Part shown: one piece after another, positions 12 to 55,169 of the stretch
Position numbering within the stretch: the first letter of the stretch is position 1
Layout: each line of letters starts with the position of its first letter
DNA from: a virus
Lineage: Duplodnaviria > Caudoviricetes
Direction: 5' to 3' (one strand)
DNA length: 64,000 bases
Virus record (IMG/VR): IMGVR_UViG_3300032332_001787
Span: 64,001 to 128,000 of that record
Translations under genes and position numbers: made by a program
Notes under the pieces: model-generated
What the model was told of the DNA's origin: nothing
Seen by the model: the letters and a program-made list of their open reading frames with translations, nothing else
Databases searched by the model: none

Positions 12-233
12 TTGAGTATGAAAGTGGGAAGTAATATTCCTTTTTATAGATTGGCTCGTTCTATTGACAAAGATAAGGGGCCAGATGTTTGGCATACTTC
101 TTGCAATGACAATATTAATGGCAAGATTACTAATACCCTTATTTGGTGGGGCAAAGAGGACGAGCCTGAGTTATTCTATCGTAATAAAGATGGTAAGCTG
201 TTTACTGTAAATTTTGAACCTTTTGAGGCATAG
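12..233 (+). CDS. hypothetical protein
   Basis: ORF in + strand gene run. Confidence 0.6.
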   Translation: MSMKVGSNIPFYRLARSIDKDKGPDVWHTSCNDNINGKITNTLIWWGKEDEPELFYRNKDGKLFTVNFEPFEA

Positions 234-3856: not shown

Positions 3857-3978
3857 TCATGAATACATTACCAGATAGCAAAATTCCTTGGTGGGATAAT
3901 CACTATGAAGATGTTTATAGTGAAGAAGTAGAAGATGGTTATCCTTATGATGTGGGAACTAAAGTACAGGAATAAATT

Positions 3979-4761
3979 ATGTGGTTCAGACCAAGATCAA
4001 GAATTCATCATTGGAATTGTTCTAGGTTCGCGGATTTTGTTCGCGGAGAAAAGAAACCGTTTGCTTTAGAGTGGGGCAAATGGGATGAGTGGAAAAAAGA
4101 ACAAAGAAAGAAAAGACCAATTCGATTCTGGTTATCTGAAGAAGTATTACCTAAACTACAGGATTTGATCTTGTTTCCTGTGGACGTTTACACTGAGATT
4201 AGGTATTATATTAATAATCGTTGGATAACCAAAACACACTATCTAAAAACTGGATTAGAGCCAGGACATTACTATGAGCTTGATTACAGAATTCTTCATG
4301 GTTTGTTTAATGAGCTTGTGGATTTTGTAGAGATTGAATATGCTCATCTAGCAAAATGGTCTCTTAAAAAGGGTGCTAAAAACTACAAGTTTAAGAATGG
4401 ACGATCCGTTGAAGCAGGATTAGCTTATCTAAAATGGGCTTGCTCTTTAAAGTATACCAAAGATTGGGGTATAGACAAAAAAGACCCAAAGTATGGAAAG
4501 CCAACCCATCAAGCCGTTTCTGCACAAAAGATCAAAGAACTTTATCTCTGGTGGAAAGATCGTCCGAACAGACCAGAACCTATGGACGTTGCCAAATTAT
4601 CTTGGAATCAAGATAAAGAGAATAATTTGATGGACGGTAAGATAACAAGAAAAGAATTATCTCAATTCAAAAAACTTGAAAAGATTGAAATAGACTACGA
4701 AAAAGAAGATACCAAAATGCTTATTGAACTAATTAAAATCCGCAAGGAGTTATGGTCATGA
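3979..4761 (+). CDS. hypothetical Trp-rich phage protein
   Basis: 260-aa ORF. Confidence 0.8.
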   Translation: MWFRPRSRIHHWNCSRFADFVRGEKKPFALEWGKWDEWKKEQRKKRPIRFWLSEEVLPKLQDLILFPVDVYTEIRYYINNRWITKTHYLKTGLEPGHYYELDYRILHGLFNELVDFVEIEYAHLAKWSLKKGAKNYKFKNGRSVEAGLAYLKWACSLKYTKDWGIDKKDPKYGKPTHQAVSAQKIKELYLWWKDRPNRPEPMDVAKLSWNQDKENNLMDGKITRKELSQFKKLEKIEIDYEKEDTKMLIELIKIRKELWS

Positions 4762-50712: not shown

Positions 50713-50934
50713 ATGCCCAGACCTTTTACAGATATCTCAAAATCAATTAGTACTAATCCTATTAAAAATGGAACACTAGTAACTTCTACAACATTTACAG
50801 GAAAATATTCTGTTAATAATAATTATGTTAAAAATACTCCAATTATAGATACTATAGCTAGCAAATATGGCTATAGATTCTATAACGGAATTTTTGTACA
50901 ATTAGTTGGTGACCAAACACTAATAGGTGGATAA
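50713..50934 (+). CDS. hypothetical protein
   Basis: GGAG RBS. Confidence 0.6.
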   Translation: MPRPFTDISKSISTNPIKNGTLVTSTTFTGKYSVNNNYVKNTPIIDTIASKYGYRFYNGIFVQLVGDQTLIGG

Positions 50935-53174
50935 TGAGTATAAAAAGAATAAATCAATTTCCAGAAGGTAGTGGCAGTCTAACCTCAGATGACGTTTTCC
51001 TATTTATGGATGATCCATCTAATAGTGGAACCACTAAGAAAATTAGTTTGAATCAAATAGCAAATGCTATTGGGGGAAATGCTTCAATTCTAAAATCAAC
51101 ATATAGTTCAGGAAATGAAGGCGGCGAAATACAACTAGCAAAACCAGTAAACAGTTCATTGAATGGTGATGTTGTAGTTGATGTTTATCAAGATAAATTA
51201 CGTATATTTGAAGGTGGAGGAAATTCTCGTGGAGGTTATTTTGATTTGACCACAATGGGAAATAATGCATCTACAAATTTATCTAATTCAACTAACGGTA
51301 CAAGTTTTCAAATATCCTCAGTAGACCTTCATAATGGAGGAGTACAGAATGCTCAAGTTTTAAAATTTGACAATTCTAACTATCAATCAGTAATTACAGG
51401 ACCAATCCCAACATCAGGTAATACAGCACAAAGATTAATCATCCAGGGTCAACGTGCGCAAGGTGGGGGTGAGGGTGGAGATGTTTATTTATGGGGTGGT
51501 GATGCTGATATTAATGGTGGTGATATTAAAATATATGCTGGTGATGCTGATAGTAACGAATCCGGGAATGGTGGATATATTAATATTGACGCTGGCAATG
51601 GACATGATAATGGTGGACAAGTTAGTATTAGTGCTGGAAACTCTTCTGTCCAAGGTGGAAATGTTAATATTCGTGCTGGCTATCCGAGCGGGAATGTTGT
51701 AATTGATGCTAATGGAGGTAGTCAAAGTTGGAATTTTAAATCAGATGGTACAGTATCCTTACCATCAAATACTCTAGATGGTGGAACCAATAGTATAGAT
51801 ATCAAAAGCTCAAACTATGCTGGATTATGGTATCAGTCTGGTCCTAGTGGAACACCAGATAACTATATAGAAAATCCAAATAATAATAGTGAAGCTTATT
51901 TTTGGACAACATATGATGGCACACATATTGAAAACTATAGAGTTAATGACGGAACCAATCCATCATTGAGTTATGAATGGCATTTTAGTAATGATGGTAA
52001 ATTAAGACATCCAGATGGAACAACTAATAGCGGAGGAACTGTGGTTGCTCCTGGAACATATGATATACAAAGTATTGAGAATACGCTAATTCAAACCAGC
52101 GCTAGTGCTCAAGCCAAAACTTGGGACTTTGGTACAGATGGTGGTTTAACACTACCAAAAGGAAGCATACTAAGCGAAACAAATAATACAGTGTCTTTAA
52201 TGCCACCAACAGCGTCTTCTGGACAGAGCTTGGTAATTCGTCCAACCGCTGCACCTTGGAGTATTAATTCTAGTAATTATATTGAGTATGGTAATTCTAT
52301 CACTATTTCAGTTACTATAAATGGTTGGGTTTATTTTGGAACAGTAAACTATACAATCTCTGGTGCTGGAGTTACTTCACAATCATTAGGTCGAGAATTA
52401 ACTGGCAAAATAACTTTCTCAGGCATTAGTGGTCAACCAGATACAAAAAATATTACTTGGACTATACCAGCTAATAGTAATATCTCCGAATTTACTTTTA
52501 CATTAACTAGTGTTGACGGAACAAGACCGGGTCCAGATGTTGCAGACGCAAACCTTTATCCAGAACTATATTACAATTTTGAAGAATCCAACGGAATGCC
52601 TATTGGTCAATTTATTACAGTAACCAATAATGGAATATCTAGTTCAGAGCATAGTCATGTACATCTTGTATCAGGAGATCCTTCAACAGTTGATATTTAT
52701 TTAGGTGATGATGATCAATACGTTAAGATTGAAAAAAATGGTGGAGATGTGATTGTTGGCACCAATTCAAATACTCACCTTTGGACTTTTGATACAGACG
52801 GCAAATTAATATTACCAGGAGGATATGCTCAAGTTGTTGTAGAGGGTGATGCTGGGGTTCGTATTGGAACAGCGGAAACTAACGTTGCTCCCAATAGCCA
52901 AATTAAAATCGGCGGTGCTGAACATGCGTTTGAAATCTTTGGAGGGCCTCCTGGATATAGCTGGAAGTTTGAAGGAAATGGTGAACTAACATTACCAGCT
53001 AGTGGTAGTATCACATTCCCAGATAATACCACCCAAACTTCTGCTGGCATACCAAGTAATACCGGACTAGTTCCAAATTCAGTTAGTATTACTAATATGG
53101 TTAGTATCTCACAAAGTAATTATGATGCGATAGCAACAAAAGACCCTAACACATTGTACATAATTAATAACTGA
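50934..53174 (+). CDS. tail fibre protein
   Basis: Gly-rich GGxxxIxAG repeats; five WxFxxDGxLxLP modules; C-terminal SQSNYDAIATKDPNTLYII. Confidence 0.75.
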   Translation: MSIKRINQFPEGSGSLTSDDVFLFMDDPSNSGTTKKISLNQIANAIGGNASILKSTYSSGNEGGEIQLAKPVNSSLNGDVVVDVYQDKLRIFEGGGNSRGGYFDLTTMGNNASTNLSNSTNGTSFQISSVDLHNGGVQNAQVLKFDNSNYQSVITGPIPTSGNTAQRLIIQGQRAQGGGEGGDVYLWGGDADINGGDIKIYAGDADSNESGNGGYINIDAGNGHDNGGQVSISAGNSSVQGGNVNIRAGYPSGNVVIDANGGSQSWNFKSDGTVSLPSNTLDGGTNSIDIKSSNYAGLWYQSGPSGTPDNYIENPNNNSEAYFWTTYDGTHIENYRVNDGTNPSLSYEWHFSNDGKLRHPDGTTNSGGTVVAPGTYDIQSIENTLIQTSASAQAKTWDFGTDGGLTLPKGSILSETNNTVSLMPPTASSGQSLVIRPTAAPWSINSSNYIEYGNSITISVTINGWVYFGTVNYTISGAGVTSQSLGRELTGKITFSGISGQPDTKNITWTIPANSNISEFTFTLTSVDGTRPGPDVADANLYPELYYNFEESNGMPIGQFITVTNNGISSSEHSHVHLVSGDPSTVDIYLGDDDQYVKIEKNGGDVIVGTNSNTHLWTFDTDGKLILPGGYAQVVVEGDAGVRIGTAETNVAPNSQIKIGGAEHAFEIFGGPPGYSWKFEGNGELTLPASGSITFPDNTTQTSAGIPSNTGLVPNSVSITNMVSISQSNYDAIATKDPNTLYIINN

Positions 53175-53182
53175 GAATTCGC

Positions 53183-55114
53183 ATGACAACAATAAATAGC
53201 GAAATATTTTTAAGCAACTCCAACATAACCTCTGTTAAATTAGGAAATACTGGTGTTTCTAAAATATTTTTAGGAAATAATATAGTATTTGAAGCTACTG
53301 ACAACTGCCCTGACTCAACGTCTAGCGTTAAAATGACAGGATGGTTTGTTGGTGATCGAATTCTATCTCCGATTGGATATGCTCCTTATGGACGTGAAAC
53401 TTATATCTATGGGGATGAAGCTGTTCGATATGAAACTGGAGTATGGATTTATACTAATACTGGAGGAGAGATTGTTAGGGCATATAGTTATGCTGACCGG
53501 CCTTGGCTAGTAGAGTGGCCGTCCCCATATGCTGCTGAGAAAGTTCGTCAAGATGGTACGTCATGTGAGTCTGCAAGTACAACAACCACTACAACAACCA
53601 CAACAACCACCACAGAAGCACCAACTTTTGGAAGTTCAGGATTTCAGTGGATGACAATGAATTCTATTACAGAGTCTACAGCATCAGGGATTGGTCAAAA
53701 TAATATAACAATAAATGTTACCCAAAATGGTGGCGGTATGTTTCTACATAACGGAGCGGTCGGAGCCACTAATTTTCCAATAGAATATGGAGTACCAACT
53801 GACGGTAATCAAATTGCAAACACTCAACCCGGAGTATTTACTGCAATATTTAGTTCACCCGTTACAGATGCTCTTGTTGCATTTGCCAGTGTCGGACAAG
53901 CAGGATTACAAGTTCCTGTTATGGTACTTGATGAGAATTCTAATCCAAAACCTTTTACTCCAATTTGGTCGTCCAATGCTATTATTCCGGGTACACAAAC
54001 AACGTATTTGAATCAAGTAAGTCCAACTCAATACACACAATTTGTTGGAGAAGAAGGATACAATATTATCCGAATTGACGGAACAATGAGTAGTGTGACA
54101 TTCAATTATGGCTCCGCTGAATATTACTGCACAGTTTGTTTTGGATTTGTGGATCAAAATGTTACAACCACTACAACCACAGAAGCACCAACAACCACAA
54201 CCACAACTACAACACCAGCTACAGTATCGCCAGGAGCTAATTCTGCTAATTTTAATGTTTGTGCTGATTGGGATGGCGCGGATGGCAATGTTACTACTGT
54301 GGGAAGTAATGGTGGACCTAGTGCATACGGTACTTATGATCAAAGTGGACAGGTTTTTGAGTGGAACGATTTAGATAACACTCCCGACTCGTCTCGCGGG
54401 TTGCGGGGCGGCAATTGGTACTTCAACAGTCAGTTCCTCTTGTCGTCCTCCTTCAACAAATTGGAAGACCCGTCGTTCAAGAACTTCTACATCGGTTTTC
54501 GTCTCGCTAGTTCCTTCTCTATACTTAATCCTTTAAATCTTCCTAACTTGGTAGCTGTTAGTGATGTTAACAACGCTTCTGATACTGCGGGAAGCATTGG
54601 AAAAGGAGGTGTAAGTTACAATTATGCTATAGGAAAATATCTTGTAACTAATAGCGAATATGTAGAATTTTTAAATGCTGTTGCTGCAACCGACACATAT
54701 TCTCTTTACTACTCAAGGATGGCAGGTGATATAGGTGGTATCACAAGATCAGAAACTAGTGGAAGTTATACTTACAGCGTAAAAACTAATTACGGAAACA
54801 AGCCGCTCAACTGGGTAAGCTGGTTTGATTGCGCCCGATACTGTAATTGGTTACACAACGAAAAACCAACCGGGTCTCAAAACAGCAGTACTACCGAAGA
54901 TGGAGCTTACACATTAAATGGTGCCGTTTCTGGAAATGCCGCTGTCAGAAACTCCGGAGCAAAATACCACATCCCCACAGAAAACGAATGGTATAAAGCG
55001 GCTTATTACAAGGGTGGCGGGACCAATTCTGGGTATTGGAGTTATGCCACCCAAAGCGATACTAATCCAACTTGCGTTAGTGCTGATGCTTCCGGTAATG
55101 GAATAATACCATAG
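53183..55114 (+). CDS. adhesin/receptor-binding protein with Thr-rich linkers and permuted FGE-sulfatase (CLec) domain
   Basis: YGTYDQSGQVFEW, RGGNW, GFRLA precede GKYLVTNSEY, WVSWFDCARYCNW, PTENEWYKAA. Confidence 0.8.
   Translation: MTTINSEIFLSNSNITSVKLGNTGVSKIFLGNNIVFEATDNCPDSTSSVKMTGWFVGDRILSPIGYAPYGRETYIYGDEAVRYETGVWIYTNTGGEIVRAYSYADRPWLVEWPSPYAAEKVRQDGTSCESASTTTTTTTTTTTTEAPTFGSSGFQWMTMNSITESTASGIGQNNITINVTQNGGGMFLHNGAVGATNFPIEYGVPTDGNQIANTQPGVFTAIFSSPVTDALVAFASVGQAGLQVPVMVLDENSNPKPFTPIWSSNAIIPGTQTTYLNQVSPTQYTQFVGEEGYNIIRIDGTMSSVTFNYGSAEYYCTVCFGFVDQNVTTTTTTEAPTTTTTTTTPATVSPGANSANFNVCADWDGADGNVTTVGSNGGPSAYGTYDQSGQVFEWNDLDNTPDSSRGLRGGNWYFNSQFLLSSSFNKLEDPSFKNFYIGFRLASSFSILNPLNLPNLVAVSDVNNASDTAGSIGKGGVSYNYAIGKYLVTNSEYVEFLNAVAATDTYSLYYSRMAGDIGGITRSETSGSYTYSVKTNYGNKPLNWVSWFDCARYCNWLHNEKPTGSQNSSTTEDGAYTLNGAVSGNAAVRNSGAKYHIPTENEWYKAAYYKGGGTNSGYWSYATQSDTNPTCVSADASGNGIIP
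54383..54509 (+). other. DGR variable-repeat-like segment
   Basis: about 53% GC island; 15 of 25 codons between RGGNW and GFR end in C. Confidence 0.55.
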
Positions 55115-55120
55115 CCTATT

Positions 55121-55128
55121 GGTGTATT
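55121..55128 (+). promoter_or_regulatory. putative phage-specific promoter motif GTGTATW
   Basis: intergenic GGTGTATT. Confidence 0.45.
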
Positions 55129-55169
55129 ACTATCTTAGATATATAATCTATTTTTAATTGGAGTTTAAA

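Follow-up and report, generated by a model that had tools for sequence, protein, structure and literature searches.

Diversity-generating retroelements (DGRs) are regarded as self-contained cassettes which act on targets in their own genome. In these targets the variable repeat (VR) typically lies at the 3′ end of the gene, and the AAC codons of the template repeat (TR) become NNC codons through adenine mutagenesis. The present work deals with a GC-rich patch which, judged by its sequence, is very probably a VR of DGR origin, located in a 64,000-nt stretch of a Caudoviricetes virus (IMG/VR record IMGVR_UViG_3300032332_001787). This stretch, hereafter the window, covers bases 64001–128000 of a record of 230,097 bp, which is 100% complete according to CheckV and has a GC content of 34.7%. 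The patch is placed in the middle of P0001, a gene for a protein of the tail-fibre-tip or receptor-binding type, within a domain of the FGE-sulfatase/C-type-lectin (CLec) fold, and the matching TR and reverse transcriptase (RT) lie outside the phage, in GC-rich bacteria.

In BPP-1 (mtd VR, avd, TR, and brt), as in the window, a phage receptor-binding CLec tip carries a loop written from a TR by adenine mutagenesis, and residues 269–374 of Mtd align to the first 100 residues of the predicted model of the window unit. The BPP-1 cassette, however, acts in cis with its VR at the 3′ end of mtd, whereas the phage of the window is without Avd, RT, and TR, its VR is mid-gene, and the template is found in bacterial chromosomes. 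TvpA of Treponema denticola (PDB 2Y3C) shares with the window protein the FGE-type CLec fold and a VR in the RGG…GFR segment. The FGE/SUMF1-EgtB-PvdO superfamily (PF03781) has the same fold and sequence motifs as the window unit, but in the window the domain appears to be permuted and to serve as a variable module for binding.

Cellular DGRs with several or remote targets, in which one RT and one TR serve non-adjacent VRs, also resemble the present case. Their known remote targets are in the same genome as the RT, whereas here the VRs are on another replicon (a phage of 35% GC vs bacteria of 63–67% GC). In the engineered system of Guo et al. 2011, a cell-resident avd-TR-brt donor rewrites a phage-carried target and needs only sequences at and just past the 3′ end of the VR (PMC3240598). 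That system depends on the initiation of mutagenic homing (IMH) sequence and a GC-rich hairpin, of which phage and bacterial VRs show no counterpart here on their 3′ side. This locus differs from the known systems by a VR gene on a different replicon from the RT and TR, a permuted lectin domain, and a decay series of orphan patches.

The patch and its bacterial template

The original prediction, made from the window alone, described a GC island, an excess of C-ending codons, and a mid-gene position, all of which hold against the whole genome. At 54381–54510, 69 of the 130 nt are G or C; the 130-nt windows of the genome have a mean of 45.1 (sd 8.8), and only 1.2% of them across the 230 kb reach this value. 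Of the 25 codons between W and GF, 15 are C-ending, whereas 3.3 are expected from the codon usage of the genome given the amino acids (0 of 1e6 simulations reach 15, P<1e-6; plain binomial 1.2e-8), and the frequency of C at third positions in the open reading frames (ORFs) of the genome is 0.118. Over the complete stretch from RGLRGG to GFRLA, 30 of the 38 codons are G- or C-ending (8.3 expected, P<1e-6). TTC, AAC, and TAC are chosen 10 times out of 10 in the patch, although their usage genome-wide is only 17–19%. The RGG…GFR segment (aa 405–441), C-terminal in canonical domains, lies earlier here, with about 600 coding nt 3′ of the patch in the ORF.

The island recurs in related phages. Among 51 related loci taken from viral contigs, about 15 units, distributed over roughly 13 phage contigs, have an RGG–GFR loop which forms a sharply bounded GC island, with a third-position GC content of 0.78–0.88 (aa 405–434) vs 0.2–0.35 in the remainder of the unit; the island is absent from more distant paralogues. 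This subgroup was chosen by the island itself, although the distribution is bimodal. The phages of the subgroup show a protein identity of only 60–69% to the window unit, and their scaffold codons are identical even at synonymous sites (e.g., CGG GGC GGC, TTG TCG TCC TCC, CCG TCG, and GGT TTT CGT). These codons are interleaved with NNC codons varying at positions 1 and 2 (codon alignment of about 15 phage VRs). Such a combination is the mark of VRs which derive from a single conserved TR in which the variable codons are AAC. A chimeric assembly was rejected, since many independent assemblies and samples contain the patch.

A first guess of the TR, used as a 21-mer, had no match among viral contigs, and the scaffold pattern retrieved from them VRs only and no TR. 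Metagenome contigs were scanned with the inferred scaffold and AAC at two variable codons, and 11 of them proved to contain one near-identical, AAC-rich TR which matched the prediction at all variable codons. In all, the TR is known from 12 bacterial-type contigs of 63–67% GC, and carries AAC at about 12 codons. An RVT_1 reverse transcriptase (81 bits) is found in the TR contigs, and the gene order of the cassette is FGE target, bAvd, RT, and TR (e.g., L110 and L111). The bacterial VR/TR pairs show 0–4 non-adenine and 14–21 adenine mismatches.

The L110 cassette is located on a 79.7-kb NCBI contig beside transketolase, LptF/LptG, and other housekeeping genes. The same scaffold is present in GC-rich contigs of metagenome-assembled genomes (MAGs), mostly from Planctomycetota and in some cases from Verrucomicrobiota, and contigs of 532 kb and 93 kb are among them. 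In a Planctomycetota MAG (G049), the TR is accompanied by an RT of 96% identity. Several donor contigs are short, and their taxonomy is that of the MAG binning. The external TR and RT show that the DGR of the patch belongs to GC-rich bacteria of the Planctomycetota–Verrucomicrobiota–Chlamydiota (PVC) group, mostly Planctomycetota, and not to the phage. Bacteria and phages share the VR/TR scaffold at the nucleotide level, and their domains are about 50–55% identical in amino acids over both halves. They differ in that the bacterial target has a signal peptide, the two halves in canonical order, and the VR near its 3′ end, followed by a PEP-CTERM anchor only, whereas in phages the domain is permuted, joined to fibre modules by poly-Thr linkers, and AT-rich outside the patch.

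The absence of an RT or TR from the window, already noted in the original prediction, extends to the complete genome. Neither a second VR copy nor a TR was detected by BLAST in the window or the 230-kb genome, and a scan in which an A of the candidate template was allowed to stand opposite any base of the patch likewise found none in the genome. Searches of the same genome (G000, CheckV 100%) for RVT_1 and for bAvd were both negative. An RT is absent from 47 related phage records and from the L057 record (9 of these 48 are at least 90% complete), and no TR lies within 10 kb of any related phage unit. The bacterial RT protein matches phage genomes only via its TR-encoded tail. The search for a near-identical TR differing at adenines and for a DGR RT, which the original prediction had advised, succeeded for both in GC-rich bacterial contigs. 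psbA was not found in the phage genome, and its absence weakens a cyanophage identity. A search for gp23 gave no match either, but is uninformative, its control having given none anywhere.

The VR of the window has 95 matches to the TR, and the mismatches are concentrated at TR adenines (14 of 31 adenine sites vs 13 of 91 other sites; odds ratio 4.9, p=8e-4). The bias is also found in L012 (p=6e-7), and the other phage patches are compared in table 1. When the phage and bacterial genes are aligned, third-position identity is about 0.25, close to chance, elsewhere, rises to 0.75–1.0 exactly over the span of the TR (0.75–0.88 for the window patch), and falls to about 0.12 directly 3′ of it. The mismatch series, from 3 to 31 non-adenine differences, is read as patches of different age drifting toward the AT-rich composition of the phage.

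Table 1. Mismatches of phage patches to the bacterial TR
Unit	At non-adenine sites	At adenine sites	Remark
L012	3	13	
L034	4	18	
L050	4	15	
L057	5	17	
L020	7	18	
L007	8	15	
L036	8	21	
L013	11	14	
Window	13	14	plus one codon gap
L002	15	14	
L006	15	19	
L003, L004	22		
L005	26		
L026	31		
Unrelated paralogues	35–43		

The earlier reading of the NNC codons as products of an AAC-rich template is thereby supported, since the TR was predicted and then recovered, with mismatches enriched at its adenines. The patch is indeed a DGR repeat, but a DGR run by the phage or a diversification at present finds no support: the genome is without RT, Avd, and TR, and the VR of a relative is near-identical. The fallback proposed at the time, a recent capture from a GC-rich host, was right as to the source, the GC-rich sequence being the repeat of a GC-rich bacterium, but the patch captured is still DGR-derived.

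Some further features of the bacterial cassettes were observed. In L059–L069, a conserved, strongly structured GC-rich stem-loop is located about 20–90 nt past every TR (e.g., L067 1830–1900; about −40 kcal/mol over 90 nt), and probably corresponds to a part of the DGR RNA which acts as spacer or in priming. The RT reading frame of L067 (570–1952) continues through the TR in the frame of the VR, whereas other gene calls end at 371 aa. In contig C1 of a Chthoniobacterales MAG (G050), a VR at 272981–273101 is 85% identical to the Planctomycetota-type TR and lies 29.5 kb from an RT (302491–303673) whose own TR is only 74% similar. This may be a remote or orphan VR within a bacterium.

Possible routes of entry into the phage

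Recombination or gene conversion with the target gene of the host is considered the most likely route of entry, with a probability of about 0.55. The chromosomal cassette of the bacterium (target, bAvd, RT, and TR) rewrites the ligand-binding loop of a secreted, PEP-CTERM-anchored FGE/CLec protein. Large AT-rich lake phages carry the homologous lectin domain, permuted, on genes of the tail-fibre type, and in one subgroup the loop is the GC-rich patch with the exact scaffold of the TR and NNC codons. Such a patch would be brought into the phage during infection by exchange with the already diversified target gene, and would afterwards have remained static in this lineage while drifting toward AT. 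The product of P0001 would then most likely be a receptor-binding lectin of fixed specificity, whose binding loop was obtained ready-made from the hypermutation system of the host.

In accordance with this route, two phage units, L036 and the second unit of L013 (8626–8697), carry host-target-specific sequence 30–48 nt upstream of the TR boundary, and L013 is 94% identical to the bacterial L081 over 72 nt. Conversely, the bacterial L081 and L090, both GC-rich MAG contigs of Planctomycetota type, have a VR interior which is AT-rich and phage-like. This looks like a transfer from phage to host. The host flank in the two phage units and the phage-like interior in the two bacterial VRs indicate that recombinational exchange happens, and in both directions. 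In L081, the PEP-CTERM target VR (3976–4066) has an interior of 27% GC over 30 nt in a contig of 64% GC, and its 5′ flank variant AAT AAG GGA ATC also occurs in phage L013.

Several points weigh against entry through the host gene. In seven of the nine fresher phage patches, including that of the window, the GC-rich tract begins at the 5′ boundary of the TR and none of the seven has a flank specific to the host gene. This is what homing templated by the TR predicts, and recombination fits these seven only with crossovers confined to the short shared ends. Nevertheless, the boundary argument is weak, since homology for a crossover exists only inside those ends. No phage VR has a near-identical twin among host VRs; phage–host pairs differ at 17–21 of 96 positions, as independent host–host pairs do, in a small sample. 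The assignment of the host comes partly from MAG binning of short contigs, and the host of the phage is deduced solely via the shared cassette.

The length of the VR is a further difficulty. It has 38 codons in the window, whereas every TR recovered has 37, and its own template variant was not recovered; for this reason some of the 13 non-adenine mismatches of the window may reflect the codon gap and not decay. A 38-codon TR was sought in 401 Planctomycetota genomes, which gave only the known TR, in G049. Such a variant probably exists, because bacterial VRs with 38 codons are found.

A possible, though rather doubtful, alternative is mutagenic homing in trans, in which the Avd, RT, and TR of the host rewrite the phage VR directly during infection, both homology ends being retained in it. 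In that case, hypermutation would be borrowed by the phage lineage from its host to vary the receptor-binding loop, and the copy in the window would be a target without recent rewriting. The patches of the window, L012, L034, L057, L050, L007, and L020 fit this, as they span the TR from its 5′ to its 3′ boundary (GCA AG) with AT-rich phage sequence just outside, and the homologies to both TR ends are kept in phage VRs. In L012, which has no more than 3 non-adenine mismatches, even the CTC CGC sub-variant of a particular TR type is present, and every phage VR is an independent draw at the adenine sites. In the laboratory, a plasmid donor with avd, brt, and TR rewrites a phage-borne recipient target (PMC3240598), and remote targets within one genome are known, which large surveys miss by design (PMC8144416).

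On the other hand, near-identical phage copies show no variation wherever they can be compared, and homing in trans leaves unexplained both the flank of the host gene in phage copies and the AT-rich VR interiors of host genes. Hairpins do not help to decide. Within 75 nt past the VR, a perfect stem of at least 6 bp is found in none of the phages and in one case past the VRs of the bacteria, and a search for hairpins or cruciforms past the VRs of bacteria and phages showed nothing conserved. The absence of a GC hairpin of the BPP-1 type past phage VRs is uninformative, because it is absent past the bacteria's own working VRs too.

Far less probable is a relic of a DGR of the phage itself: an ancestor would have had the cassette in cis, and orphan VRs would have remained once RT and TR were lost. 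The static, partly decayed VR of the window would be expected of such a relic. However, an RT is found neither in this genome nor in any of the 48 related phage records (nine of them at least 90% complete), and no TR remnant is near any unit. The matching TRs are in DNA of 63–67% GC, beside a PEP-CTERM cell-surface target and in chromosomal context. Moreover, the phage VRs are islands of host-like GC and codon usage, some within 3–5 non-adenine bases of the TR, and far younger than their flanks.

A reading without any DGR, by which the patch came from codon selection acting locally, from biased gene conversion, or from the horizontal acquisition of an ordinary fragment, and the NNC codons are coincidental, can draw on about 60 other GC-rich 130-nt stretches in the genome, the GC island alone not being unique, but is in practice refuted by the recovery of the predicted TR, by the mismatch series and its bias to adenine sites, by the scaffold identical at synonymous sites across phages of 60–69% amino acid identity, and by boundaries which coincide with those of the TR.

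By either of the two leading routes, host gene exchange or homing in trans, the diversity produced by hypermutation in the host feeds the receptor-binding proteins of phages, and the exchange also runs in reverse. DGR-written binding-site cassettes are common to a bacterial cell-surface lectin and to tail-fibre lectins of phages without RT, and several independent, recent transfers are visible alongside progressively decayed copies. It is conceivable, but doubtful, that in large AT-rich lake phages without an RT the receptor-binding lectin loop is rewritten in trans, through the chromosomal DGR of the infected PVC bacterium. If so, a virus would here make natural use, across replicons, of the hypermutation system of its host, and the sequence identity between phage VR and host TR would be a marker for host prediction.

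A testable link to PVC bacteria as hosts is also provided for an uncultured group of jumbo phages. Large DGR surveys look for VRs only beside the RT (PMC8144416), and surveys with this requirement would miss orphan phage VRs of the present kind. The approach followed here, in which the TR is inferred from the VRs and then scanned for, offers a search recipe for such orphans.

The permuted lectin domain and its gene

Table 2. Features around the patch, with positions in the window
Feature	Position	Strand	Basis
746-aa fibre-like gene, G/N/S repeat-rich	50934..53174	+	ORF directly before the P0001 gene; sole PHROG match short, C-terminal
P0001 gene, 643-aa modular protein of tail-fibre-tip / receptor-binding type	53183..55114	+	ORF; Pfam FGE-sulfatase 1.4e-16
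Poly-Thr (ACN repeat) linker before the unit, module boundary for swaps between related phages	54162..54241	+	Repeat family D1; identity to L002 begins at 54204
Predicted circularly permuted FGE-sulfatase / CLec-fold unit, aa 345–643, self-contained repeatable module	54215..55111	+	AlphaFold2 and structural match
Half equivalent to the canonical C-terminal FGE/CLec half (NSANF...GNV.EW...RGG...GFRLAS), placed first	54236..54514	+	Follows the other half in bacterial target L065; model 11–98 aligns to Mtd 269–374
Very probable DGR-written patch (VR)	54386..54510	+	Homologous to bacterial TR, GAC TCG TCT CGC to CTC GCT AG
Half equivalent to the canonical N-terminal FGE half (Y.IGKY.VTN.EY..FLN ... 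VSWFDCARYCNWL ... PTENEWYKAAYY), placed last	54545..55111	+	Pfam stretch 477–611

The features of the gene are collected in table 2. From its N-terminus, P0001 consists of a docking segment and a small domain, then a middle domain flanked by two poly-Thr linkers, and finally one permuted FGE/CLec unit. A VR-bearing FGE/CLec fold had been predicted from the RGG…GFR segment and was confirmed, with the addition that the domain of the window is, in the predicted model, a circular permutation of the canonical order. In detail, aa 477–611 match positions 34–126 of the 255 positions of the FGE-sulfatase profile (PF03781), and in the bacterial L065 the stretch matching residues 113–296 of the query precedes the one matching residues 9–106. 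The half placed last has 55% amino acid identity to the N-half of the bacterial target, with a third-position identity of 0.25. The mid-gene position of the VR is explained by this permutation.

AlphaFold2, run with an alignment of 60 sequences, predicted aa 345–643 as one compact domain (pLDDT 94.8, pTM 0.94). In an exhaustive structural comparison, residues 107–289 of the model superpose on CarF 2–184 (Z 6.6, VIA), residues 102–299 on TvpA (PDB 2Y3C; Z 5.8), residues 4–100 on the last part of EgtB-IV, 332–442 (Z 5.2, rmsd 2.9), and residues 11–98 on Mtd 269–374 (Z 3.0), the Z values being modest and the compared structure a prediction. Foldseek aligned only about 100 columns to FGE-fold structures (TM about 0.22), as is expected of a permuted domain, which aligns only in part. 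A phmmer search of aa 345–643 against PDB sequences gave no match, and neither did a blastn search of the P0001 gene against 50,697 phage records.

In an exhaustive search, aa 345–643 proved to be the repeat unit of a very large family, of which 2,540 representatives match at E<1e-30. In many homologues the unit begins at residue 2–9 or finishes at the C-terminus, and tandem repeats are frequent. The fibre gene context and the hypervariable loop point to a binding module. The CLec/FGE domain seems, thus, to tolerate circular permutation and still present its variable loop, which is relevant to protein engineering with DGR scaffolds.

Related phages exchange modules of these genes: the window and L002 share an FGE unit with a DNA identity of 95.5%, and the joints are marked by poly-Thr or Pro-Thr linkers. 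In P0001, a small domain lies near the N-terminus (CPDSTSSVKMTGWFVGDRILSPIGYAPYGRETYIYGDE...; 53183–53600 of the window); it is found at the C-terminus of the 972-aa P0014 (L002 12400–12919). The gene upstream of the P0014 homologue (L002 6015–9992) has Mtd_N and Phage_tail_C domains, with the CLec tip on a separate adjoining gene. A contig of run X2 joins 54162 to 55145 via 37 other letters and omits the permuted FGE unit. It is a relative without the whole unit, i.e., a presence/absence polymorphism of the module at the poly-Thr linker. In a phage record of 151 kb, seven paralogous permuted units are placed within about 17 kb (L008 3083–19613), all with different loops and none with a GC-rich patch.

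Variation of the patch at present

The window and L002 have 95.5% DNA identity over 54204–55054. Of the 127 bases of the VR, only 4 are different between them; two of these changes are synonymous, and a single one falls on an adenine site. A single VR form is seen in the source run and an L002-like form in run X2, while the VRs of L103, L104, and L105, which come from three samples, are identical. The VR of the window appears static in this phage lineage, as compared on assembled contigs (four runs as Logan contigs), from which rare variants could escape.

The proteins of L012 and L057, as well as P0014, are singletons in clusters of near-identical phage proteins. In the P0034 cluster of 12 near-identical phage-type proteins (603–621 aa), 12 of about 28 loop columns vary vs 71 of about 598 elsewhere, i.e., about 3.6-fold more. 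At the protein level, the loop of this sub-lineage is variable among close relatives.

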